A DNA stretch of 64,000 bases from Candidatus Aldehydirespirator catecholifindens (GCA_028283245.1 JAPYNU010000006.1:1542-65541); one strand, 5' to 3'. Positions 1,545 through 20,866 are shown, numbered from the stretch's first letter. Numbers and translations are program-made. The notes: generated by a model not told the origin, from the letters alone.

Positions 1545-3430
1545 CAGTACATCGACTCCACAAGATCGCCAAACATCTCTTCCATAGCGCTGCGCTTCAG
1601 CTTCTGGGTGGCTGTGAGTTCGCCGTCTTCATGATCAAGCTCTTTTGGCAGCATCTTGAATTTTTTGATCTGCTCCACTCGGGCGAACTTGGCGTTGGTC
1701 TCATCAACTACTTTGGAGATCAGATCGATCACTTCTTCTTTTTCTGACAAGTCGCGATAGGTGGTGTATGCGACGTTCTTGCGTTGGGCCCAGTTGCTGA
1801 CCGTTTCGAGTTCGATGCCTATCAGAGCGGTCACGTATTTGCGGCCGTCGCCGATGACCATGGCTTCCTTGACGTACGGCGAGGTCTTGAGGCTGTTTTC
1901 GATCTCTGAAGGCGAGATGTTCTTGCCTCCAGAGGTGATGATGATGTGCTTGATGCGATCAACGATCTTGACATGAGTGCCATCCACCCATTCCCCCACG
2001 TCACCGGTCATCAACCAACCGTCGGAGGTGAAAGTCTCGGCGGTTTGTTGCGGCTTGTTCCAGTAACCGGCGAACACGCCGGGATGCTTGGTCTGAATCT
2101 CACCGGTCGTCTCATCAATACGCAAGCCGATGTCGGCATAGGGCTCACCCACAGTGCCGAGCTTCATACGACCCGCAAAGTTGCATGTAGCCACAGCTGA
2201 ATTCTCGGTCATGCCGTAGAGTTCAAACACCGGCACGCCAATGCCAATGAAGAATTCGAGCACTTCGGGTGCTATAGCTGCTGCGCCCGAGCCTGCATGG
2301 CGACAGCGGCGCAGTCCGATGCGTTCTTTGATGGCACGAAACACCAGCGGCTCGCCGATGGCATTCAGCAGGCGCGTCGTTAGTGTGTGCTTGCCACCGT
2401 TAGCGGCTTTGCGCCTGCCGATGGAAGCCGCAAGCATCAGAGAGAATCGCAGGCAGATCCGCTTGAAGAAAGTGGCATCGTTGCCTCTGATGGTCACCAA
2501 GGCGTGTATTCGCTCCCAGATGCGCGGCACTGCGAAGAACAGCGTTGGCTGCACTTCGCGCAGATTCAAGGTGACCGTCTCAATGGACTCAGCAAAGTTC
2601 AGCGAGGGTCCTGCCCCCACCAACGTCCATGTGGAAAAGATTCGCTCGGCTACGTGACACAGTGGCAGATAAGTGACGATCAGGTCTTTGGGGCTGGGAA
2701 CGACACCGTCGGGAAAGCGCTCATTTTCATTGACGATCTTGTCAATGCAGTAGGCAGCGTTAGCGTTGGTGAGCATGGCTCCTTTGGGTGGCCCTGTGGT
2801 GCCTGAGGTGTAGACCAGCGTCATCACATCGGTGGACTCGGCGGCTTCCATGCGTTGCGTTACTGCTGTCGGGTGAGCTTCGCGATGACGGCGACCCATT
2901 TCAAGGAAGCTGTCCCAGAACAACAGCCGGGGATCGTCGTAGTCGCCGAAGCCACGGGGCTCGGTGAACAATATGCGATTGACTGAAACTGCTGTATCTG
3001 GCGGAACTTCAAGAATCTTGTCAGCTTGTTCTTGATCCTCGGCGAAGAACACCTTGGGGTTGCAGTCGCCTACCAAATACTCCACTTCAGACGTAGGGTT
3101 GGTGGGGTAGAGGCCCACGGTGATGCCCCGCACTGCCACGGTTGCCAGATCCAAAATCACCCATTCAAGGCGGTCTTCAGAATGGATCGCTACTACATCA
3201 CCAACATCAACGCCCAGTTCCAACAAGCCGTGGGCAGCACATTCAATCAGATCCCAAGTTTGCGCCCAAGTGTACTCCTGCCAAACACCGAAGTCCTTCT
3301 CACGCATAGCCACCTGATCAGGGCTGCGATGAGCCCAGTCGCGTGCGAGTGATGCCACCGTGACCACCCCCTGAGAGGCACTTTCAGGCGAGGGCAGTTC
3401 TGAAGCGGTTCGTTGCGCGGTGACTGTCAT
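1544..3430 (-). CDS. Long-chain acyl-CoA synthetase (AMP-forming, FadD15-like)
   Basis: AMP-binding motif LVYTSGTTGPPKGAML; the 628-aa length and the C-terminal TATQKLKR-type tail are typical of long-chain fatty-acid-CoA ligases. Confidence 0.85.
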   Translation of the reverse strand: MTVTAQRTASELPSPESASQGVVTVASLARDWAHRSPDQVAMREKDFGVWQEYTWAQTWDLIECAAHGLLELGVDVGDVVAIHSEDRLEWVILDLATVAVRGITVGLYPTNPTSEVEYLVGDCNPKVFFAEDQEQADKILEVPPDTAVSVNRILFTEPRGFGDYDDPRLLFWDSFLEMGRRHREAHPTAVTQRMEAAESTDVMTLVYTSGTTGPPKGAMLTNANAAYCIDKIVNENERFPDGVVPSPKDLIVTYLPLCHVAERIFSTWTLVGAGPSLNFAESIETVTLNLREVQPTLFFAVPRIWERIHALVTIRGNDATFFKRICLRFSLMLAASIGRRKAANGGKHTLTTRLLNAIGEPLVFRAIKERIGLRRCRHAGSGAAAIAPEVLEFFIGIGVPVFELYGMTENSAVATCNFAGRMKLGTVGEPYADIGLRIDETTGEIQTKHPGVFAGYWNKPQQTAETFTSDGWLMTGDVGEWVDGTHVKIVDRIKHIIITSGGKNISPSEIENSLKTSPYVKEAMVIGDGRKYVTALIGIELETVSNWAQRKNVAYTTYRDLSEKEEVIDLISKVVDETNAKFARVEQIKKFKMLPKELDHEDGELTATQKLKRSAMEEMFGDLVESMY

Positions 3431-3473
3431 GCGGCGCTCTCCTTGATTTTGTGCTTAATCACTTAGTCCACTT

Positions 3474-3495
3474 AATCCAAAGGCAATCCAAAGGC
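3474..3495. repeat. Perfect 11-bp tandem duplication AATCCAAAGGC x2 upstream of the acyl-CoA ligase start
   Basis: Read directly: aatccaaaggc aatccaaaggc, 44-65 nt upstream of the minus-strand start at 3430. Confidence 0.8.
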
Positions 3496-3614
3496 AACTA
3501 GACGAAGTGCGGCAACGTTAGCAAGCTTTTTAGCGCGGCGCGTAATCGCAACACGACTACCGAGCACGGCTACAGCAGTCAGCCGTTAGCAGCCAGCAGG
3601 GTCAACGGATGAGT

Positions 3615-4934
3615 TCAAGTTGAGTTCGTAGCCGCGAGTCGCTGGCGACGGGCGGCATCAGAGGGATCGCCGAGACCTTCGTGGGCGGCCAGTTCGGCTC
3701 GCCCCACCACGAACCAGTGGACTTCATCTGGGCCATCAGCCAGTCGCAACGTGCGCTGATTGGCATACATTCTCGCCAGTGGGGTCCATTGCGAAACCCC
3801 GGCGGCACCATGCATTTGGATCGCGGAGTCGATGATCTGACACACCCTCTCGGGGATCATGGCCTTGACAGCACTCACCCAGATCCGGGCTTCAGCGTTG
3901 CCGAGAGTGTCCATAGCTTTGGCGGCTCTCAGCACCATCAGCCTCATCGCTTCGATCTCAATACGAGCACGAGCGATGATCTCTACGTTGCCGCCGAGTT
4001 GTGCCAGTGGTCGTCCGAAGGCTTCGCGATGGAGGCCACGACGTACCATCAGTTCCAGAGCTTTTTCGGCTGCACCGATGGAACGCATACAATGATGAAT
4101 CCGGCCCGGGCCCAGCCTCATCTGCGAAATCTCGAAACCGCGCCCCTCGCCTAGCAGAACGTTCTTGACTGGCACACGCACATCTTTTAGCCGTATGTGC
4201 ATGTGCCCGTGAGGGGCGTCGTCCTCGCCGAAAACGTGCATCGGACCAAGGATTTCAACACCGGGAGTATCCATCGGCACCAATATCTGCGACTGACGGC
4301 GATGCGGAGGGCCCATTGGATTGGTCTGCACCATGCAGATCATGATCTTGCAGCGGGGATCGCCAGCACCTGAGATGTAAAACTTCTCGCCGTTGATGAC
4401 CCACTCGTCGCCATCAACCACAGCCCCTGCAGCGATGTTCTTGGCATCTGATGAAGCCAGTGTCGGTTCGGTCATGGCGAAACATGATCTGATCTCACCG
4501 GCTAACAGCGGCACCAGCCAGCGCTCCTTCTGATCGGGAGTACCAACACGTTCAAGCACTTCCATATTGCCCGTGTCGGGGGCGCTGCAGTTGAGGCACT
4601 CTGAAGCGATTGGGTTCTTGCCGAGTTCTGCGGCGATATAGGCGTAATCAAGATTGCTGAGACCCTCACCGGTCTCAGAGTCGGGCAAGAAAAAGTTCCA
4701 CAGCTTTGCTTGTCTAGCTTTGGCTTTAAGCTCGTCCAGCAGTTCTAGCTGGCCTTCGCCGTAGCTCCAGCGCTGCTCACGGCCTTCACCGAGGCGGAAG
4801 AACTCTTCGGTAACCGGGGCTATCTCAGAGTCCATGAACTTGATAACGCGGTCAAGCAAAGGTAGGGCTTGCGGCGACATCGCTAAATCAAGACTCGAAG
4901 GATCAAAGTTTCCCAGCAGAGCAGACCGAGACAT
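3615..4934 (-). CDS. Acyl-CoA dehydrogenase (ACAD10/11-like FadE)
   Basis: CFAMTEPTLASSDAKNI (the acyl-CoA dehydrogenase TEP..GSDA signature); 439 aa. Confidence 0.85.
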   Translation of the reverse strand: MSRSALLGNFDPSSLDLAMSPQALPLLDRVIKFMDSEIAPVTEEFFRLGEGREQRWSYGEGQLELLDELKAKARQAKLWNFFLPDSETGEGLSNLDYAYIAAELGKNPIASECLNCSAPDTGNMEVLERVGTPDQKERWLVPLLAGEIRSCFAMTEPTLASSDAKNIAAGAVVDGDEWVINGEKFYISGAGDPRCKIMICMVQTNPMGPPHRRQSQILVPMDTPGVEILGPMHVFGEDDAPHGHMHIRLKDVRVPVKNVLLGEGRGFEISQMRLGPGRIHHCMRSIGAAEKALELMVRRGLHREAFGRPLAQLGGNVEIIARARIEIEAMRLMVLRAAKAMDTLGNAEARIWVSAVKAMIPERVCQIIDSAIQMHGAAGVSQWTPLARMYANQRTLRLADGPDEVHWFVVGRAELAAHEGLGDPSDAARRQRLAATNST

Positions 4935-4974
4935 GATGATGACCCTTCGTGTTTCTATGTTGACTTACCGCTAA

Positions 4975-5184
4975 TCAAAGCGACAACAGCGATGCTAGAG
5001 CCCACAGCGCCGCCAGCAAACCGATAACGGCGTAGACGATGCTGCGCAGCAGCGGTGCTCGGTCTAAATCATCTGGGTCGCGACGCTGAGTTCGCGGTCG
5101 CAAAATTGCGGCGAGGTTGCCAGCGGCCATGGATGCTCCCAGAGCCAACACCAGCCACGCCAGCAGGTTTTGGCCTAGAAACAT
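4975..5184 (-). CDS. Small two-helix membrane protein, hypothetical
   Basis: A 69-aa ORF with two hydrophobic helices separated by a charged RPRTQRRDPDD loop. It fits the gap after dnaB on the same strand. No recognisable family. Confidence 0.4.
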   Translation of the reverse strand: MFLGQNLLAWLVLALGASMAAGNLAAILRPRTQRRDPDDLDRAPLLRSIVYAVIGLLAALWALASLLSL

Positions 5185-5193
5185 TGCCGCTGA

Positions 5194-6597
5194 TCAGGGG
5201 GTCGAATTGGAAAAGTTAGCGAACTTGGTGAACCGCGAAAGGAACGTGAGTTCGGTGGTGGCCGTGGGGCCGTTGCGGTTCTTGGCGACAATCACTTCGG
5301 CTATGCCCATTGTGGCCGTGTCATCAGGATTGTAGATCTCGTCACGGTAGATGAACATCACTACGTCGGCGTCTTGCTCAATAGCACCAGACTCTCGCAG
5401 ATCAGCAAGAATCGGGCGCTTGTTCTGGCGCATCTCTAGATTGCGTGACAGCTGCGACAACGCCACGACTGGGCATTGCAATTCACGCGCCAGGATTTTC
5501 AAGCCACGAGAGATTTCGGCCACTTCCACTTGACGGTTATCGGCGCTTTGCCGACCGGTCATCAGCTGAAGATAGTCAACTACCACCATCGCCAGATCCC
5601 CGACCTGGCTTTTAAGTCTGCGAGCGCGAGCACGGATTTCCATGACTGTGACGTTGGGATTGTCATCAATCCACATGGGTGCTTCAGCGAGCTGACCCAT
5701 AGCAGCAGTGATCGCGGTCCAGTCTTGGTCGCTGAGACTTCCGTCGCGCATCTTGCTTGAATCAATACGAGCTTCAGAGCAAAGCAGGCGCTGGGTTAGT
5801 TCCATATGGCCCATCTCAAGTGAGAACACCAGCACCGGCCGGCGCTCATGGATAGCGGCGTGCGCGGCCATGCCCAAAGCAAACGAGGTCTTGCCCATGG
5901 ACGGCCTAGCCCCGACCACATACAACGACGAGGCTTGCAAGCCTGACAGTAGTTTGTCGAGATCGGCGTAGCCGGTGGCGGTGCCTGTCAATGAATCGCC
6001 GCGCTCATACAACTCTTCAAGACGGTCAAGAGTGCTGTCAAGCAAATCCGAAAGCTGAGCCGTGTTATCGCCAACCTGGCCCTGAGCCACCTGATACATC
6101 AGGTTCTCAGCGGAGTCGACGGCTTTGGTGACATCGTCGGGACGGCTGTATCCAAGTTCTGCGATCTCCCCCGCCACCTCAATGAGACGACGCAGTGTGT
6201 GATGCTCTTGGACGATCCGGGCGTAGTAGACCGCGTTGGATGTAGCTGGGGTGTTCATCTGCAACCCCAGCAGACCGTCAAGGCCCCCGATCGTGTCAAG
6301 TTTGCCGTTGCGCTCGAGAGCCTCGGCCACGGTCACGGCATCGGCCGGTTCGCCGATGCTGTATAGCTGATGCACCGCTTCGAACACGTCGGCGTGCGTC
6401 CGACGGTAGAAGTGCTCTGCTTTGACTATTTCGAGCACGTCGGCAATGGCATCTCGAGACAGCAGCATCGCTCCCAGAAGGGATTCCTCGGCCGACAAGC
6501 TGTGCGGCGGGATGCGCTCAGTTGGGTGTTGCCGGGAGGAGGCGGCAGAACCGGTGGTGCCAGTGCCGTAACGCTCAGCGATGTCGGTGACGGTCAT
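5194..6597 (-). CDS. dnaB: Replicative DNA helicase DnaB
   Basis: PHSLSAEESLLGAMLL N-terminal motif, Walker A GARPSMGKTSFAL, and the C-terminal RNGPT motif; 467 aa, no intein. Confidence 0.95.
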   Translation of the reverse strand: MTVTDIAERYGTGTTGSAASSRQHPTERIPPHSLSAEESLLGAMLLSRDAIADVLEIVKAEHFYRRTHADVFEAVHQLYSIGEPADAVTVAEALERNGKLDTIGGLDGLLGLQMNTPATSNAVYYARIVQEHHTLRRLIEVAGEIAELGYSRPDDVTKAVDSAENLMYQVAQGQVGDNTAQLSDLLDSTLDRLEELYERGDSLTGTATGYADLDKLLSGLQASSLYVVGARPSMGKTSFALGMAAHAAIHERRPVLVFSLEMGHMELTQRLLCSEARIDSSKMRDGSLSDQDWTAITAAMGQLAEAPMWIDDNPNVTVMEIRARARRLKSQVGDLAMVVVDYLQLMTGRQSADNRQVEVAEISRGLKILARELQCPVVALSQLSRNLEMRQNKRPILADLRESGAIEQDADVVMFIYRDEIYNPDDTATMGIAEVIVAKNRNGPTATTELTFLSRFTKFANFSNSTP

Positions 6598-6872: not shown

Positions 6873-7322
6873 TCAGGCTTGGGGTGTCACCTCAACGGTG
6901 ACCGGCACGACCACATCTTCATGCAAGCGCAACATCACGGTGTGCGCACCGACCTCGCGCAAGGGCGACTCAAGAGCCACCACTGAACTGTCAAGTCTGA
7001 CACCCACCTGCTCAGCGGCCGCAGCCACGACATCAGCAGGCCCAACCGATCCGTAAAGATGCCCCGAGTCAGCGGCGCGTGCCGACACCGTCAAAGTTGT
7101 CGGTGCCAAACGAACCCCGATCGCTTCAGCGTCTGCTCGGTCGGCTGCTCTTTGCATTGCAGCGCTGCGACGCATCGCCTCAGCTTGACGGATCACTCCT
7201 GGCGAAGCCTGCAGCGCAAAACCTTTAGGCACTAGATAGTTGCGGGCATAACCTGCGCTTACTTCACAGATATCACCTTTGCGACCCAAGCCTTCAAAGT
7301 CATCACGCAGCACTACCTTCAT
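6873..7322 (-). CDS. rplI: 50S ribosomal protein L9
   Basis: [36 protein letters not shown] is the canonical L9 N-terminus. ATGA overlap with rpsR. Confidence 0.9.
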
Positions 7323-7816
7323 GGGTGAACTCCTGCCGTGGAGTCTGCTGACTGTGAGTCGGACTCGTCGCTCACCGGCAGCTCTGCATCCGAAGGATCG
7401 TGTAATTCGACTGCCTCACTAGCTCCATTATCTGCGGAGCCCTCCGCTTGATCGAACTCGTCAAGGTCGCTGCCCGGCGGCAACGACGACGGCAGTGGTG
7501 CCGGGCCATCAGCGCGAGGGCGACCGTCTCGTTCCTTCATTTGGCGTTGCGTGGTGACTTTGGTGCCATAGGGAACCAGTGCCATTTCGCGAGCCAACTT
7601 GATGGCATCAGCAACGAGCTTCTGCTGTTGAGCACTGTTACCTGTGACGCGGCGCGCTCGGATTTTGGCTCGTTCAGACATGAACTTGCGCAACAGCTTT
7701 TCGTTCTTCCAGTCGACGTAGTCGATTCCTTCGGTGGTGAGAAAGCTGATCTTCTTTTTTACGCGACGCGTAACTTCACGAGTCTTGGCACGCGCTTTTT
7801 TCTTGCTCTTGGGCAC
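7319..7816 (-). CDS. rpsR: 30S ribosomal protein S18 with an ~80-aa acidic C-terminal extension
   Basis: S18 core [29 protein letters not shown]...REMALVPY in residues 1-84. The reading frame then continues to residue 165 (D/E/S-rich). Confidence 0.85.
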
Positions 7817-10361: not shown

Positions 10362-11701
10362 GACTTAAACCGTAGTTCGTGGGCAGACCAAAGTTCTAGT
10401 GCAGCCAGCGCTTCGGGCTTGCTAAGCGGTCCCTGTTCAAAGGTCTTGTTGCGCAAGAAGTCGAGAGCTCGACCGACTTCGGGTCCAGCTTCGATAGCTA
10501 GAGCTGCCATTATTTCGGTTCCGTCGAGGGGTAGAACCAGCATGTCTAAATCTTCGTTGGCTCGCAGTTCGACGAGGCTCTCGGCGAAGGCACCTAGCAA
10601 ATTGGTGCTTTGAGCGGTTTGGTCTGTGTCGCTGGCTTTCGCCACGGCCGAAGCGAAAGCCAGCACGTCGTCGATTGGCACAGAACAGCTGTGAACAAAA
10701 CGGCGCACGTTGGCACGGGTCGCTGGCGTTCCAATCAAATCAAGACGAGCTTGCAGCAATGCGCTGACGGAGGTGGTTAGTGATCTGGAGCAGCGCATCC
10801 TGCACAAGCTGAGCGAAGCTGTCTCAGGCGAATCGTTCACGAACAGCGCAGCCCAGCGCGACACAAGGTCAGCTGCTACAGCAGCCACGACATGGGCGGA
10901 CTCTTCAAGGCGAAGGCTGTTGAGTTCGGGAATCAATCGAGTAATCAAGCCGGTTGCAGCAAGAAACTGGAATCCTTCAATGGGATGACTTTGCAACAGC
11001 AGTTTTTGAAATTCGTCGCGTATGCGTTCGACTGCCACAATATCAATTCGGTCAGTCATGGATTGCACAGCGTTCACGAGATTTGGTTCGGGATTTAAGC
11101 TGTGGCTGGCTATGAACCGAGCGGCGCGCAGCATCCGCAGAGGGTCATCGGCAAATGACACGGTGGGATCAAGCGGTGTGCGCAGCACTTGCGCCTGCAG
11201 ATCTACATAGCCGCCGTAAGGATCGATCAAGATGCCGTCAGCGGTATCAACAGCCATGGCATTAACCGTGAAATCGCGGCGGGCCAGATCGGCGGCTACA
11301 TCATCGCCGAAAGTGACCAGCGGCTTGCGTGAGTCGCTCAAGTAATAGTCGGCTCGATGGGTAGTGATCTCATAGTCGCGATCACCAACGGTGCAGCCAA
11401 TGGTGCCGAAGCGTTCGCCCTGAGTCCACACAGCGGTAGCCAGAGAATCCAAAATGCGGCGTACTTCGTGTGGATGGGCGTCGGTGGTGCAGTCAAGATC
11501 GGTGAGAGCGTCGAACTTGCCAGCAACGGCTTCACGGACAACGCCGCCCACAAGATAAAGCCGGTAGCCGCCCTCTCTGAAGAGTTGAGCTAAAGCGTCA
11601 ACGGCTGACAGCGCATCTGCAACAGCTTTGCGAGCGGATGGTAGCACCGCGGCGAGCGTAGCTTGCCCCTTTGTTGTAGCGGACGGCTCACTGCGCTGCA
11701 T
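10358..11701 (-). CDS. CCA-adding tRNA nucleotidyltransferase / poly(A) polymerase family (PcnA-like)
   Basis: YLVGGVVRE...DLDCTTD nucleotidyltransferase motif plus a C-terminal HD-like region. The start is set to the internal ATG at 11701, because the longer track ORF would overlap the divergent degV gene. Confidence 0.85.
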   Translation of the reverse strand: MQRSEPSATTKGQATLAAVLPSARKAVADALSAVDALAQLFREGGYRLYLVGGVVREAVAGKFDALTDLDCTTDAHPHEVRRILDSLATAVWTQGERFGTIGCTVGDRDYEITTHRADYYLSDSRKPLVTFGDDVAADLARRDFTVNAMAVDTADGILIDPYGGYVDLQAQVLRTPLDPTVSFADDPLRMLRAARFIASHSLNPEPNLVNAVQSMTDRIDIVAVERIRDEFQKLLLQSHPIEGFQFLAATGLITRLIPELNSLRLEESAHVVAAVAADLVSRWAALFVNDSPETASLSLCRMRCSRSLTTSVSALLQARLDLIGTPATRANVRRFVHSCSVPIDDVLAFASAVAKASDTDQTAQSTNLLGAFAESLVELRANEDLDMLVLPLDGTEIMAALAIEAGPEVGRALDFLRNKTFEQGPLSKPEALAALELWSAHELRFKS

Positions 11702-15475: not shown

Positions 15476-16366
15476 TCACACGATTATTTCGCAGATGCGT
15501 TCCAAATCCGAAAGTCCGCTGAAGCGAATCACGACCGTGCCCTCATCCCTGCTGGCTTTGACGGTCACTTGGGTGTCCAGCTTGGCAGCCAGCAGGCTCT
15601 CAAGTTCAAGTGCTGTGGCTTTGATCTCATTGGTAACGGATGCTTGTTCTTCGCTGTGCTCTGTGGTTTCTGACTTCTCAGCATCCGAGCGGATCTTTGC
15701 TGCTCGCTGCTCGGCCTGACGCACCGTCAGGCCTTCCTCGGCAATCTCTTCAGCCAAGACTTGCTGCATGTCAGCATCTTCGAGGCTCAACAGCGCCCGG
15801 CCGTGACCAGCCGAAATACCGCCTTCAACAATGAGGCGCTGCACCTTTGGAGTTAGATTCAACAGCCTGACCGAGTTCGCCACTGCAGAGCGCGACTTTG
15901 CGACCCTGGCAGCAACGACTTGCTGCGTTAATCCAAAATCATCCATTAACTGTTGATACGCGGCGGCTTCTTCCAAGGCGTTGAGGTCGTGTCGATGCAC
16001 GTTCTCAACGACAGCCGCTTCTAGGGCAGCCTTGTCGTCAGCTTCACGAATCAGTGCTGGCACGCTGCGCAATCCGGCACGCTGCGCCGCCCGCCAGCGG
16101 CGTTCGCCCGCAATGATCTCATATCCTTCAGAAGCTTTACGGACAATTACAGGTTGAATAACCCCAACTTGTGCAATTGATTCGGTCAGGCCCGCGAGCA
16201 TTTCTGGATCAAAGCGCTGTCTTGGCTGATAAGGGTTTGGCGATATCAGGCTGATGTCGATTTCTTGAAACGCCGAATCTGCTGCCTGCTTGGCTTGCTC
16301 ATTTGTGGCCGATTCGTCGGGTATCAACGCTCCCAGACCTTTACCGAGAGCACTACGCCGCGCCAT
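15476..16366 (-). CDS. parB: Chromosome partitioning protein ParB
   Basis: ParB box GERRWRAA, an HTH region, and a C-terminal dimerisation domain. Confidence 0.92.
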   Translation of the reverse strand: MARRSALGKGLGALIPDESATNEQAKQAADSAFQEIDISLISPNPYQPRQRFDPEMLAGLTESIAQVGVIQPVIVRKASEGYEIIAGERRWRAAQRAGLRSVPALIREADDKAALEAAVVENVHRHDLNALEEAAAYQQLMDDFGLTQQVVAARVAKSRSAVANSVRLLNLTPKVQRLIVEGGISAGHGRALLSLEDADMQQVLAEEIAEEGLTVRQAEQRAAKIRSDAEKSETTEHSEEQASVTNEIKATALELESLLAAKLDTQVTVKASRDEGTVVIRFSGLSDLERICEIIV

Positions 16367-17138
16367 AAAGGACCTCCTTTGCTAACGCGCGAAAGGCTTT
16401 CGCTCCCGTGGAAGACGAATCATAACGTATGATCGGCTGGCCGAAAGAGGGTGCCTCACTGAGTCGAACGTTGCGGGGCACGACTTGCCAGCAAACCTTG
16501 TCGCCGTAGTGCGCTCGTACTTCCTTGGCCACCTCACGCGACAACTTCGTTCGGGCGTCATACATTGACAAGATCACTTTGGTCAGCCTCAATTCAGGGT
16601 TTAGGCTTTTCTGCACTAGTCCAATGGTCTTGACTAGTTGAGCCAGTCCTTCAAGTGAGAAATACTCAGTTTGCACTGGCACGATCACTTCCTCGGCGGC
16701 GGTCAAGCCGTTCACCGTCAAAAGTCCCAGTGACGGAGGACAATCTATCAGAATAACATCATATTTGTCTTCAATGCTGGAAATAATCGATTGTAGACAT
16801 CGCTCTCGGTTGAATGTCGGGACTAGTTCAATCTCCGCACCTGCAAGATCAAGGTTGGAAGGCAGGATATGCAGACCCTCAACAGCTGTAGGCAGGATGA
16901 TTCCATCAAGATCGGTGTCGCGCAACAAGGCATCATAAATTGAGCCGTCTAGGGTTCGAGTGTCATATCCCAAGCTAGTGGTTGCGTTGGCTTGGGGATC
17001 AAGGTCAACTATGAGCGTCTTCAGTCTCTCCTCGGCTGCAAAACAGGCAGCAAGATTGACAGTTGCGGTTGTTTTGCCTACTCCACCTTTTTGATTTGCA
17101 ACTGCGAGCACCTTGGCGCATTTCGTATCGGGCGGCAT
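16353..17138 (-). CDS. parA: Chromosome partitioning ATPase ParA/Soj
   Basis: Deviant Walker A NQKGGVGKTT; 261 aa. Confidence 0.92.
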   Translation of the reverse strand: MPPDTKCAKVLAVANQKGGVGKTTATVNLAACFAAEERLKTLIVDLDPQANATTSLGYDTRTLDGSIYDALLRDTDLDGIILPTAVEGLHILPSNLDLAGAEIELVPTFNRERCLQSIISSIEDKYDVILIDCPPSLGLLTVNGLTAAEEVIVPVQTEYFSLEGLAQLVKTIGLVQKSLNPELRLTKVILSMYDARTKLSREVAKEVRAHYGDKVCWQVVPRNVRLSEAPSFGQPIIRYDSSSTGAKAFRALAKEVLYGAA

Positions 17139-17181
17139 AGCTGCAAGCTATCTCCCCGTCGGCCCTAGAGCTTGCGCCCTA

Positions 17182-17197
17182 TGTTTCATGTGAAACA
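17182..17197. promoter_or_regulatory. parS: parS site 1 (TGTTTCATGTGAAACA)
   Basis: A 16-mer with one mismatch to the tGTTTCACGTGAAACa parS consensus. It is an inverted repeat ATGTTTCA-TG-TGAAACAT, 44 bp upstream of the parA start. Confidence 0.8.
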
Positions 17198-17198
17198 T

Positions 17199-20100
17199 GC
17201 GGATTCAACTACGACTATTCTCAGGGTTGGACGGAAGGTTCATTTGCAAGTTCGCGCCGCAGTGCGTCAAGATCACGCACTGGGACTCCAAGCACAGCAC
17301 CCACCGCCTCATCAAGTTGAGCGCGAATCGGACACTGCTGAGCTTGGTGCAGCGGCAACAGCGGCTCCCCGGCGATTGTGTCTAACAGGGACGCTAGGGA
17401 CTTGCGGCTTTCCGGCTCGAGGTCGGGCACTGCAAGGCTGCGCATGGCCTGAAGGCTTAAATTGGGACGAGACAGAGTGTTGGGAGATGCAACTGCGAGC
17501 ATGGCAAGAACCCCGAGAGTCGAGTTCAGGAAGACGGTCATAGCTTTGCTCCACTCGGGATTGAGTTCGCCGTCGCAAGGCGCGGCCGGCACCCAGCCTG
17601 AGCCCACAGTCGGCTCTTCGCAGCAAACCGCCAGCACCTTCAGAGTATTTAGACGCGGTTTTGCTGCTATCAGCAGGTGGGTCGCCTTGCTGTAGTACTT
17701 GTCTGCGAGATGCCCTTTACCGCTCTTGGCGTGGATATAGCTATCGGCGGTTGTGGCGAGGCTGACGACGCGATCCGTTTCGTTGTGCCACAACGCTTTA
17801 CGGCCAGTGCTATCGGCGCGACTGTGTCTAGTGAAAGCATCACGGATTCGTTGACCAGCTGGACCGATATCTGCTCTGCGGCCTAGTTTCACGAACTTTG
17901 TGCCTTTCCAAACACCATCACGCAGACAGCCCGCGACATCGGCCAGATACGCCGACGCGATTGTGAGCGGAGCCCATTCTCCCCCCACCATCCGCTTAGC
18001 GGGCCAAGTGCTAATCTGGGCTATGCCGTTGGCGATATCAGTTCCGTCGGCGGGTGTCCATTCCATCAGTGATCGGGCGGTACCTGCGATGTCGGCGACG
18101 CTGCGCGTGTTGCGCCACAGCCTGACGAACTTGGTGGGCGGCCTTAAGGCTGGTTCCTGCGGTGAGCGACGACACACTATGAGCGCCTCAGAAATGCTGG
18201 TGTTCTCTGAGAAGTTGATCCTGTGCGGGTCAAAGGATGCCACAACCCAATCAATGTGAAACCATTCCGCTAGTAGTTTGCGGGCATCTCTATTGGACGG
18301 AGCAGCAACACCGGCGAGTGGGTATACGAACGCCAACACCCCAGAGCCCATGTCGGCAAGGTGCTCGCCAAGGTCGACAAACATGGATCCTGCCGAGGAA
18401 CCATGACCAGCCCGCTTGTGGGTGATGACCTTCTCGCGTGCTTTGAGTTCCTTCTCCTCGGCTTTCGAGAACTGGTCATGACGCAGCGAGTCGCGAGTAT
18501 AAGGCGGGTTCATAATCACCATATGAAAAGTGTTGGGCTGCAGGGTGAGCGCCCTTTTGGTTTCGACTTGCGTCCCGTAGCTTTCTTCGCCGAAACGGAA
18601 CTGCCCAGTAGCCGCGTTCTCCAAGAGTTCCAGCGACCCGATTCGTGCATAGCGCTTGCGGTTCTTGACTTCAACGCCGAGCGGCAGCCTCGCGACGTTC
18701 ATTCGATCAAACGCTGTAGACGGCGACAGCAGACCAAGCGTGGTAGCAGCCATGTGGCAGGCGGTGGCGTTCACGTCAAGACCCCACAGCACCTCCTCAA
18801 TCAGCACAGAAGGTTCGCCATCCTGGAGGGCAGAGCCGCGCAGTTCGCGGATGCGTTCGCCGACAGCCATCAACAGGGTTCCCGTCCCGCAGGCCGGGTC
18901 AATGACCCTGAAGTCAGCCAGCTCTTCGGGTAGAGTATCGGCGTTGGGAAGTCCCAGCATTGCTAACAGCGTCGCTGATGAAACCGATGTGTAATAACTA
19001 CCGTCGTAGCGGGCGGTATCAAGCAATCGATGAAAAATGCTTCCCAGAAGGTCGTGTCCGGCTGCTGCAGCCGATGTCGCAGCTGCTACTCCAGCACGAG
19101 CCACGATCCTCACAATTCTGTTCCATTGAGATGTCAGCACGGGGGCATACAACGCCTCGCGAGCCAACTGGAACACTGGTCGGTAGTCCTTGGCAAGTAT
19201 GAGGCTCCAAGCATCAAGAAGGTCGAGTACCGGGTTGTCGCCAGCAATGCATTTCGTAGCGCGTCTCGGCGGCCACGTTCCCTCGTAGCTCCGCCCATTC
19301 GAATGGCGGGCATCAACTATGGGGCAGGTAGAGAGGTCCGTGAAAGCGGTATCAAGGCGAGCGTGGAACATGGCAGCTGCTGCCACAACCAGAAGTCCTC
19401 GCTTTGCGGCCGCTTCGGACTTGTCTTTTCCGCGGACTGAGGTCGGCAGATCCAGCGCTTCGGCCAGCGCTCCGCGGTCGACGGCTTGAAGGTGACTTAT
19501 GGCTGTGTTGAGTGCTTGATTGAGCCTTGCAGCTTCGGCTTCAGGACTGCCCAAATCGCTGGACAGCAGCAACAAGTGCCTTGCTAGATCAGAGACGCGG
19601 CCTACATGGTCCTGCTCATCATGGTCAAGCGATCGTGGATACACCGTCCTCCAGCGAAGGTTGCGGCAGGCCGACAGTGCCTCGGCTCTAAGACTTACCG
19701 GGTAGGCAACCGCCACGACTGCGTCACCGACGATGGTTCCGTCGACGATCTGCTCAGCCCGGCGCAGAGCATCCTTGACAGCCCCAGCCAGGGTCGCGCC
19801 TTTCTCGGCTTCGCAGTAAATGACGCCTTGATCCGTCTTGATCTTCAAATCAGGCCGCAAGCCTCCTGCCCCACCCAACGGCTCGGGTTCGGCATCAAGC
19901 CCAATGTCACGGAGCGCGTCAGCGAGTGCGCCATTGATCAATTGTTCATGTGATGCCTTTTGTGATGTCACGTTCGGCAGTCCTTGTCATTAGAATGGGG
20001 CTACAGAATGGGTTACGATGCCCATAGCGAGCAGTAACTTGACCAACCTTCACTCTAAAGCAGACGTGGGACGCGGCGGTGAATGCCGAGACTCTCTCTT

Positions 20101-20199
20101 TAAGATCAGAAAGATCAATAACCTCACTTTGGAGAGGATATGTGCAGCCAGTGCAACCGTTGGACGACTCGTTTGTCGATGCAGCCATCAGAGGTTCTC
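17199..20199. other. About 3.0-kb inserted segment between parA and rsmG, bounded by identical 26-mers (17173-17198 and 20200-20225)
   Basis: TGCGCCCTATGTTTCATGTGAAACAT occurs twice in direct orientation, with identity stopping sharply on both sides. In the canonical actinobacterial ori layout parA and rsmG are adjacent. Confidence 0.5.
17221..19971 (-). CDS. Large gamma-class N6-adenine DNA methyltransferase with ~300-aa N-terminal and ~400-aa C-terminal extra domains (Type IIG/IIL-like architecture, or an orphan MTase)
   Basis: Motif X-like LLGSIFHRLL...GSYYTS, motif I VIDPACGTGTLL, motif IV MNPPYT. 916 aa, GTG start. No adjacent R or S gene. Confidence 0.8.
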   Translation of the reverse strand: MTSQKASHEQLINGALADALRDIGLDAEPEPLGGAGGLRPDLKIKTDQGVIYCEAEKGATLAGAVKDALRRAEQIVDGTIVGDAVVAVAYPVSLRAEALSACRNLRWRTVYPRSLDHDEQDHVGRVSDLARHLLLLSSDLGSPEAEAARLNQALNTAISHLQAVDRGALAEALDLPTSVRGKDKSEAAAKRGLLVVAAAAMFHARLDTAFTDLSTCPIVDARHSNGRSYEGTWPPRRATKCIAGDNPVLDLLDAWSLILAKDYRPVFQLAREALYAPVLTSQWNRIVRIVARAGVAAATSAAAAGHDLLGSIFHRLLDTARYDGSYYTSVSSATLLAMLGLPNADTLPEELADFRVIDPACGTGTLLMAVGERIRELRGSALQDGEPSVLIEEVLWGLDVNATACHMAATTLGLLSPSTAFDRMNVARLPLGVEVKNRKRYARIGSLELLENAATGQFRFGEESYGTQVETKRALTLQPNTFHMVIMNPPYTRDSLRHDQFSKAEEKELKAREKVITHKRAGHGSSAGSMFVDLGEHLADMGSGVLAFVYPLAGVAAPSNRDARKLLAEWFHIDWVVASFDPHRINFSENTSISEALIVCRRSPQEPALRPPTKFVRLWRNTRSVADIAGTARSLMEWTPADGTDIANGIAQISTWPAKRMVGGEWAPLTIASAYLADVAGCLRDGVWKGTKFVKLGRRADIGPAGQRIRDAFTRHSRADSTGRKALWHNETDRVVSLATTADSYIHAKSGKGHLADKYYSKATHLLIAAKPRLNTLKVLAVCCEEPTVGSGWVPAAPCDGELNPEWSKAMTVFLNSTLGVLAMLAVASPNTLSRPNLSLQAMRSLAVPDLEPESRKSLASLLDTIAGEPLLPLHQAQQCPIRAQLDEAVGAVLGVPVRDLDALRRELANEPSVQP

Positions 20200-20208
20200 T
20201 GCGCCCTA

Positions 20209-20224
20209 TGTTTCATGTGAAACA
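20209..20224. promoter_or_regulatory. parS: parS site 2 (TGTTTCATGTGAAACA)
   Basis: The same 16-mer as site 1. The rsmG stop codon (20213-20215) lies inside it. Confidence 0.8.
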
Positions 20225-20866
20225 TCGAGGCTGGCCTAACGGTGCGCGGCGGCGGGCCGGGTGCCTGCGTGGAAACTCATCGGGTGATGCCTCTATTCGC
20301 TTAATCGCAAGGTAACGACTTTGTGGCGTCGTCCAAGTGTCCGCTGCTTCGCAGCCCAGCCGTTGGAGCGGAAGCTCCCGCCACTGGGTCAAAGTTGCCT
20401 CCGATACGGACACAACAAGAGCGCTGCCGATCTTTATCAGCGGCAGCGCACACTCAGCCAGTTCAGCCGGAGGCCCAAACGAACGCGCCACGGCAGCGTC
20501 GAAGCTCTCTCGATGAGAACGAGCCGTCTCTTCGATTGTTTCTTGCTTGACGGTTACCCGATTGGTTAACCCCGCGGCTGCTACCGCTCGTCGTGCCAGA
20601 TCACAGCGGCGAGCTTGTGCATCAACCAGCCACCAATTCGACTCCGGCATCTCAAGTGCCAGCAACACCCCTGGTAGACCAGCACCAGTTCCGCAGTCCA
20701 CGACTCGGCTAGGGGCCTTAGTCCTCCACTCGGGTAAAATGTAGCCAGTTGCGTGTGCGTAAAAGAACTCAATCGAATCTTGCCCGAGAGCACCAGCGAG
20801 ACGTGCCGCGGCCCATGATTGATCAATGCTCTGCAGTGTCTCAGGATCATGACCTGCCAGAGACAT
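20213..20866 (-). CDS. rsmG: 16S rRNA (guanine527-N7)-methyltransferase
   Basis: SAM motif VVDCGTGAGLPGVLLA and the C-terminal FPRR...PLG tail typical of GidB. Position between jag and parA. Confidence 0.9.
   Translation of the reverse strand: MSLAGHDPETLQSIDQSWAAARLAGALGQDSIEFFYAHATGYILPEWRTKAPSRVVDCGTGAGLPGVLLALEMPESNWWLVDAQARRCDLARRAVAAAGLTNRVTVKQETIEETARSHRESFDAAVARSFGPPAELAECALPLIKIGSALVVSVSEATLTQWRELPLQRLGCEAADTWTTPQSRYLAIKRIEASPDEFPRRHPARRRAPLGQPRCFT

Follow-up and report, generated by a model that had tools for sequence, protein, structure and literature searches.

The junction between rsmG and parA is described here for Candidatus Aldehydirespirator catecholifindens, in a stretch of 64,000 nucleotides (GCA_028283245.1, JAPYNU010000006.1:1542-65541; hereafter the window, to which all coordinates refer unless another locus is named). 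Genes and insert segments discussed below lie on the minus strand, along which the order is yidC, jag, rsmG, one copy of a direct repeat, a short reading frame (orf80), a gene for a 916-amino-acid protein, the second repeat copy, parA and parB, with dnaA and dnaN located a few kilobases beyond. Pfam recognises rsmG (20213-20866; 16S rRNA m7G methyltransferase) as GidB, and identifies parA (16353-17138) and parB (15476-16366), the latter through ParB_N, HTH_ParB and ParB_C. Between the two repeats lie 3,001 bp (17199-20199) that share the orientation of the yidC-jag-rsmG-parA-parB string and are absent from nine relatives. We consider it likely that this cargo was inserted without an integrase into the rsmG-parA spacer, in an event that duplicated 26 bp including parS and the rsmG stop codon.

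Two copies of parS where relatives have one

The 26-mer TGCGCCCTATGTTTCATGTGAAACAT occurs in two exact copies on the same strand, a downstream, parA-proximal one at 17173-17198 and an upstream, rsmG-proximal one at 20200-20225. No further copy was found in the window with up to three mismatches allowed (0 expected by chance), and among 100 fetched loci (L numbers below) the 26-mer is confined to the rsmG-parA locus. A scan of JGI metagenome contigs for the 26-mer, with R permitted at the parS centre, gave no match, the contigs already known to carry it included, so that this collection evidently does not cover the samples concerned. Identity breaks off at the first base beyond the repeat on both sides. 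Each copy contains TGTTTCATGTGAAACA (17182-17197 and 20209-20224), which differs at one position from the 16-bp palindromic parS consensus TGTTTCACGTGAAACA; these are the only two sites in the window within two mismatches of that consensus. A preliminary description, made from the sequence alone, had reported the abruptly ending repeat, its parS content and a 3.0-kb separation of parA from rsmG, and exact searches and measurement bear it out on all three.

Several features identify these sites as parS: they stand beside parAB and near oriC, approximately 4 to 7 kb from dnaA, and single sites occupy the orthologous position in nine relatives. The CACATG variant of the window is also found in L016. 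As in the parS clusters known near oriC, we find a palindrome one mismatch from consensus just upstream of parAB; such clusters usually consist of dispersed sites or short tandem arrays, whereas the second site of the window is a by-product of gene insertion, embedded in an exact 26-bp repeat 3,027 bp from the first. The stop codon of rsmG (20213-20215) falls within the parS of the upstream copy. Since this copy carries the last codons and the stop of rsmG, the gene was left intact. The downstream copy ends 34 bp upstream of the parA ATG.

The closest relatives by ParA belong to the Acidimicrobiia, the best named ones being metagenome-assembled genomes (MAGs) of Acidimicrobiaceae and "Candidatus Aldehydirespirator", with 72-75% ParA identity. 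The closest genome found, a 2.8-Mb contig (L093), encodes proteins identical to those of the window at 78% (ParA), 83% (YidC), 76% (Jag) and 64% (RsmG), and its syntenic DNA is 67-77% identical at the nucleotide level. There, rsmG is directly followed by parA, and a consensus parS overlaps the TGA stop of rsmG and leaves 42 bp to the ATG of parA. This very layout results when 17199-20199 and one of the repeats are taken out of the window, with parS over the stop and 43 bp to the parA ATG. In eight further relatives (L007-L012, L016 and L017) rsmG is again adjacent to parA with a single parS between them, and no parS-bracketed insertion was seen among about 30 other loci with rsmG upstream of parA. 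The proposal that the cargo entered a conserved rsmG-parA junction and duplicated parS is thus borne out by nine cargo-free relatives with one parS each.

We may also ask whether the repeats are older than the cargo, which would then have dropped between two locally duplicated parS sites with no target duplication of its own. Tandem parS pairs or triplets, 35-47 bp apart, do exist in other lineages (L013 at 5146/5193/5240, L015 at 2005/2045, L028 at 5102/5138, L043 at 7902/7944, L062 at 7179/7215, L068 at 4731/4766). As these arrays are free of cargo, the number of parS sites near parAB evidently also grows by short local duplication. Furthermore, some 90 bp of the insert next to the upstream repeat have no counterpart in the other cargo copies and might in principle represent former spacer of the host. 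However, this position is occupied by a single parS in each of the nine closest relatives, and the two copies are identical over exactly 26 bp with dissimilar DNA adjoining them, where a tandem duplication would have copied the spacer too. The reconstructed single-copy site moreover matches the spacing of L093 (43 versus 42 bp), and the cargo's conserved 3' end meets the downstream repeat with no base between them, which is unlikely to be a coincidence. We therefore give this order of events a slim chance.

The junction between rsmG and parA is not inviolable in other phyla either, judging from an Acidobacteriota MAG (L045) in which a gene for a 995-amino-acid TonB-dependent-receptor-like protein lies between them on the opposite strand (2983-5970). 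We discarded this 3.7-kb gap as a comparable case, as it holds a TonB-dependent receptor gene and no parS duplication.

Contigs of the same species (98-100% nucleotide identity) were found under eight different sample or assembly labels, which we count as labels and not as proven independent data sets. Three sequences (L001/L095, L002 and L003, from two JGI samples and one NCBI MAG assembly) cover both repeat copies, and partial contigs under five further labels each cover one junction. Every observed copy of either repeat is identical across these contigs, and the cargo is present in all those that extend past the repeat, L094 excepted. Mis-joining at the parS palindrome during metagenome assembly might be invoked to explain the structure, the more so as this sample series probably does include contigs fused at parS and as two contigs (L096 and L097) stop with the final base of the cargo gene, immediately short of the downstream repeat. 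But L001/L095, L002 and L003 cross both junctions with the same junction sequences, flank and cargo match in composition, and strain-level variants exist within the cargo. The structure is not an assembly artefact by this evidence, and we regard the chance that it is one as negligible.

Contig L094 (JGI 3300009878) follows the window from 26377 to 20208 at 97.9% nucleotide identity, then switches inside parS to the 5' end of mnmG/gidA. The mnmG fragment (L094 6160-6891) is 65-71% identical to genes of Rhodobacteraceae and other Alphaproteobacteria, and at the switch the GC content rises from 54% to 61% and the parS variant changes. We had considered L094 as a second rearrangement breaking at parS; the jump in GC, the change of parS variant and the alphaproteobacterial type of mnmG led us to reject it. 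By its sequence, L094 is probably a chimera whose two parts were fused at the parS palindrome that they share, and it calls for caution with metagenome assemblies around parS.

The cargo gene and its product

Most of the insert (17199-20109) is a core of mobile DNA that blastn and MAFFT align at 80-87% nucleotide identity with copies in L087, L088 and L089-L092. This core extends from about 130 bp upstream of the start of the 916-amino-acid gene to 22 bp past its stop, and homology with the L089 copy stops exactly at 17199, the base abutting the downstream repeat. The remaining 5' part (20110-20199, about 90 bp) is common to no other cargo copy and is probably DNA from the donor context.

Pfam annotation of the insert and adjoining open reading frames (ORFs), together with the genes within 10 kb on each side in the identical contig L001, reveals no integrase, transposase or phage gene, as the preliminary description had said of integrases and transposases. 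Nor did we find a tRNA or Rfam RNA gene at the locus, terminal inverted repeats on the cargo, or a match to the cargo protein in a scan of viral contigs. The composition of the cargo is not distinct: its GC content is 58.5% against 57.3% for the window, its tetranucleotide distance lies below the window median, and GC content at third codon positions (GC3) does not set it apart. Composition, suggested earlier as a check on foreign origin, is therefore uninformative here, and the lack of a compositional mark fits a donor from the same bacterial group; horizontal transfer emerged instead from comparing identities, as shown below.

The large gene (17221-19971) was examined with Pfam, NCBIfam, PADLOC, alignments and an AlphaFold model. 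The cargo had been described as one large DNA methyltransferase only; the methylase is present, but so is a conserved nuclease-like domain at the N terminus. Residues 1-125 form an alpha-beta-beta-beta-alpha-beta unit with the family-invariant residues D41, E54 and E56 (D-x12-E-x-E). A gamma-class N6-adenine methyltransferase occupies residues 300-600 approximately, with motif I DPACGTG at 358-364 and motif IV NPPY at 488-491, and is followed by a target-recognition-type domain (about 600-916). Both DPACGTG and NPP (488-490) are invariant across 43 homologues. Pfam matches in these 43 family members are to N6_Mtase (43/43), MmeI_Mtase (37/43) and Eco57I (23/43), the latter two being weak. Sequence profiles thus see only a divergent gamma-class N6-adenine methylase, along with the PADLOC models MTase_II and REase_MTase_IIG, and the N-terminal domain has no nuclease-family match in Pfam, NCBIfam or PADLOC.

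A full-length model built from the 43 homologues (predicted local distance difference test, pLDDT, 86.5; predicted template modelling score, pTM, 0.88) has as its best match in the Protein Data Bank (PDB) the type IIG enzyme BpuSI, followed by CamA, PglX/BrxX and DrdV. When the N-terminal domain is modelled alone (pLDDT 88.5), the top PDB matches are all PD-(D/E)XK nucleases, namely Hjc, SPARDA, RecU/PrfA, the R2 endonuclease domain and HincII. We read the gene as a candidate single-chain, type IIG-like restriction-modification enzyme, whose nuclease and methylase activities are both predicted. What speaks against a nuclease is that the structural matches of the N-terminal domain are marginal (best E-value 1.2e-3) and that K is replaced by an invariant E in the third catalytic position, which makes nuclease activity uncertain. 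BamHI likewise has E in place of K in its PD-(D/E)XK triad.

The protein resembles the type IIG/IIL enzymes BpuSI, MmeI and DrdV in its length of about 900 residues and in the order of its parts, a PD-(D/E)XK-like N-terminal domain, a helical connector, a gamma-class methylase and a C-terminal recognition domain. It differs in being only 11-14% identical to the solved enzymes, in lacking a nuclease-family profile match and in its D-x12-E-x-E triad. Structural scores against PglX-type methylases of BREX systems are similar to those obtained with type IIG enzymes. The family comprises proteins of about 915 amino acids with more than 2,500 matches; an exact-product look-up returned no record for the 916-amino-acid protein, and likewise none for P0020.

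Genes encoding HNH or DUF222-HNH proteins lie within a few hundred base pairs of family members in 3 of 6 non-window contexts (L087 5899-7680, L088 5180-6745, L099 6783-7988, L100 4373-5587), and UvrD-type helicase genes are found nearby in two. The window insert contains neither HNH nor UvrD. This neighbourhood could reflect a functional partnership or a shared residence in defence islands.

Upstream of the large gene and overlapping its start is orf80 (19946-20188, 80 codons), which has no family match. Its 5' half is missing from the other cargo copies, and its exact product was found only in this species and context. Close to the edge of the shared core, on its inner side, an (AG)n run (approximately 20094-20101; L002 approximately 6966-6975) differs by one 2-bp unit between strains, and the additional AG unit of L002 and L003 shifts the frame of orf80. 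On these grounds (no family match, a frameshift in L002/L003, no conservation in other copies) we rejected the possibility that orf80 encodes a controller or partner, and it is probably not a gene.

Foreign origin and related events

The three nearest copies of the cargo protein are 87%, 82% and 82% identical to that of the window, and their genes are located in three unrelated contexts. The closest, P0002 (L087), is located on the contig of L093, about 1.1 Mb from the L093 rsmG-parA locus, with HNH and UvrD genes as neighbours. An 82% homologue (L088) lies between a PemK toxin gene and a fragment of a DUF4143 gene, and the copy in L089-L092 has a thiolase gene as its neighbour and a DDE transposase gene about 1 kb away. 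Cargo DNA is 86.8% identical between the window species and the L093 genome, compared to 67-77% for syntenic core genes; two further copies, in other contexts, are 80-82% identical. An identity exceeding that of any syntenic core gene points to horizontal transfer after the window and L093 lineages split. The cargo is, on this sequence evidence, foreign DNA acquired horizontally.

A second case of target duplication is provided by L088, where a direct repeat of 213 bp (96% identical; 7483-7695 and 10979-11191) brackets the cargo homologue. This repeat corresponds to the last 70 codons or so, that is the 3' end, of the DUF4143 gene, the right copy continuing the upstream part of the gene while the left copy is preceded by unrelated DNA. 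No flanking direct repeats were found around the copies in L087, L089, L098 and L099, and neither parS nor the 26-mer is present at either end of the other cargo copies.

A third case is observed within the cargo gene itself. In L002 (9461-9567), and identically in L003, a 35-bp insertion TTCCGGGCCGTCTACATCTATGATCCACTCTTCAA is accompanied by an exact 36-bp target duplication. The 36-bp segment is single-copy in the window (17572-17607), which thus represents the empty site. The window does not contain the 35-mer, and no other fetched locus contains its 24-bp core. This event is a miniature of the main one, with filled and empty alleles inside a single species. It frameshifts the L002/L003 cargo gene into pieces of 834 and 106 amino acids. 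Another contig, L004, has a 156-bp in-frame deletion (at about 1096/1097, window 18366-18521) that removes residues 484-536 including NPPY, to all appearances an independent inactivation of the methylase. The cargo gene appears to be decaying in the population, as is typical of dispensable defence or selfish genes.

Taken together, the three events hit three unrelated targets and left duplications of 26, 36 and 213 bp, none with mobility genes. These figures bear on the view that the cargo is a non-autonomous transposon, moved in trans by a transposase whose target duplications are exceptionally long, as are those of 19-26 bp reported for IS1630. The 26 bp of the window equal the top of that range (PMC2853133), and a DDE transposase gene stands about 1 kb from the L089 copy. 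Against this, the cargo has no terminal inverted repeats and the window locus no transposase; the ends of the insert vary, its upstream and downstream extensions from the core measuring 214 and 21 bp in the window compared to about 290 and 230 bp in L088; and duplications of 26, 36 and 213 bp differ too much in length to be the work of a single transposase. Mobilisation in trans is very unlikely in our estimation.

Mode of insertion and the role of parS

Insertion with long target duplication is known from Nobusato et al. (2000, Gene 259:99) and, following them, from Furuta, Abe and Kobayashi (2010, NAR 38:2428; PMC2853133). As described by these authors, restriction-modification genes of types I-IV, including type IIG and orphan methylases, insert with long duplications of variable length and no other mobile element is involved (PMC2853133, following Nobusato 2000). 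The repeats often span a start or stop codon such that the target gene stays intact, operon-like structures are also entered, and double-strand breakage was proposed as a common cause, although the mechanism is unproven (PMC2853133). The preliminary description had held 26 bp to be far too long for a target-site duplication, and in this it overlooked the long and variable duplications of restriction-modification genes (PMC2853133).

Our locus shares with these insertions a restriction-modification-type gene of a few kilobases (<20 kb) without integrase or transposase, direct repeats matched by a single copy where a related genome has the empty site, a repeat covering a stop codon with the target gene intact, entry within an operon-like string, and a duplication length that differs between events (26, 36 and 213 bp here). 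It departs from them in the shortness of the repeat, most published ones being about 46-47 bp and longer (Table 2, PMC2853133), in an empty site taken from a different species (about 73% nucleotide identity) rather than a conspecific strain, in its host, an uncultured Acidimicrobiia lineage known from metagenomes only, and in its target, a chromosomal centromere site whose copy number is altered. The window case fits each testable feature of the class, qualified by the 26-bp repeat and the other-species empty site. It is a new, well-documented example of a known integrase-free insertion mode, and what is unusual about it is that a centromere site was duplicated.

Based on these observations, we propose the following scenario. 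An ancestor of this Acidimicrobiia species, after its split from the L093 lineage, would have acquired from a related bacterium some 3 kb of DNA that carried a single-gene, type IIG-like restriction-modification enzyme. This DNA would have been joined into the rsmG-parA spacer of about 46 bp without integrase or transposase, with duplication of the target stretch, the likely routes being repair of a staggered double-strand break or a switch of templates during replication, with re-entry into the host template upstream of the point of exit. The 26 bp so duplicated include the single parS of the locus and the stop of rsmG. As the duplicated segment holds both, the end of rsmG was kept, and so was a parS for parA at the ancestral spacing. 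The chromosome would now possess two ParB loading sites 3 kb apart, ParB being the predicted binder of both.

Several observations weigh against this scenario. The 26-bp repeat stands at the short end of the published range, equalling the upper limit of IS1630, and it passes the >20-bp screen of Furuta et al. but falls below their >30-bp screen (PMC2853133). The 90 bp or so at the 5' end of the insert have no counterpart in the other cargo copies. The cargo copies in L087 and L089 lack flanking repeats. Furthermore, neither other strains of the species nor relatives above about 73% nucleotide identity yielded an empty site. The preliminary description had named as proof of insertion plus duplication an empty site with a single 26-mer in relatives: the single-parS empty site was indeed found, but not the single 26-mer, as the 10 non-parS bases of the repeat (1 + 9) are not conserved in L093. 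With these bases unconserved and no closer empty site, their single-copy ancestry is not demonstrable.

Those same 10 bases bear on the idea, put forward in the preliminary description, that parS itself acted as homology, landing pad or att-like site. A circular element carrying parS or the 26-mer would here have integrated at the centromere, making parS an attachment site or hotspot. Our literature searches found no report of parS as a site of insertion, so that the idea would be a novel one; both repeat copies hold parS, and parS is nearly universal, so that foreign DNA can share it. Yet the repeat runs 1 + 9 bp beyond parS into lineage-specific sequence, and the ends of the other cargo copies are without parS and without the 26-mer. 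As these copies lack the 10 non-parS bases, the incoming DNA is unlikely to have carried them. In addition, the three closest copies reside at non-parS sites, no integrase is present, the 26-mer is found only at this locus (two copies in the window) among the loci fetched, about 30 other rsmG-parA loci have no parS-flanked insertion, the two related events took unrelated targets of 213 and 36 bp, and the only apparent second breakpoint at parS, in L094, is most likely a chimeric contig. We hold recombination at parS to be improbable.

A comparison with att-flanked integrase islands leads to the same point. Like them, the insert is foreign DNA at a conserved locus between direct repeats of a few tens of base pairs; unlike them, it has no integrase, no tRNA or tmRNA target and no core shared with the ends of other copies, which carry neither 26-mer nor parS, and the target of the cargo family differs between events. 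Transposons or insertion sequences are no better match: inverted repeats and transposase are lacking, and both the ends and the duplication lengths vary.

Why, then, was parS duplicated? Probably because it fills the gap and holds the rsmG stop: the rsmG-parA gap measures about 46 bp, and the 16 bp of parS in this gap contain the stop codon. By a rough count, if the rsmG stop and a parS before parA must be kept, about 15 positions would be open to a 26-bp segment, 11 of which would take in parS entirely; with the second requirement dropped, this would be so for about 11 of 59. No special affinity for parS is thus needed to explain the repeat.

We may nevertheless hypothesize a more active role, in which the ParB clamp on parS, or the palindrome itself, stalls replication or draws nicks on both sides and so produces the staggered break that captures foreign DNA. 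If so, foreign DNA would repeatedly enter at parS sites without an integrase, and bacteria could gain extra parS copies through gene insertion. No paper linking parS to insertion or to a hotspot turned up in our literature searches, and we think such a role unlikely. A related possibility is that a place between two ParB loading sites dampens the expression of a newly arrived restriction gene and thereby aids its establishment.

The insertion also bears on how parAB is transcribed. Scans revealed no sigma-70-type promoter on either strand of 16900-20500 and no terminator between the cargo gene and parA, both being weak negative evidence. As the cargo points in the operon direction and has no predicted terminator, parAB is probably read through it. 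In four relatives (L007, L008, L012 and L017), a promoter-like element cTTGACTtgccgggggtcgTATGGGA lies 10-45 bp downstream of parS, with about 85-105 bp from parS to the start of parA. This element is missing in the window species and in L093, where parS and parA are only 42-43 bp apart, which suggests that parAB is read from upstream in this sub-lineage.

The question of how genes are inserted without an integrase and with a long target duplication dates back to 2000, and the locus described here is a well-resolved natural example in a phylum hardly examined for such insertions. One gene family with three events (26, 36 and 213 bp), one of them with filled and empty alleles in the same species, offers material for studying how the DNA is joined. 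That parS serves as an attachment site is not supported by this locus. What it does illustrate is a concrete route by which a chromosome may gain an extra centromere site, as a by-product of gene insertion, and it shows that a foreign gene of 3 kb can be accommodated within the ori-proximal rsmG-parAB operon.

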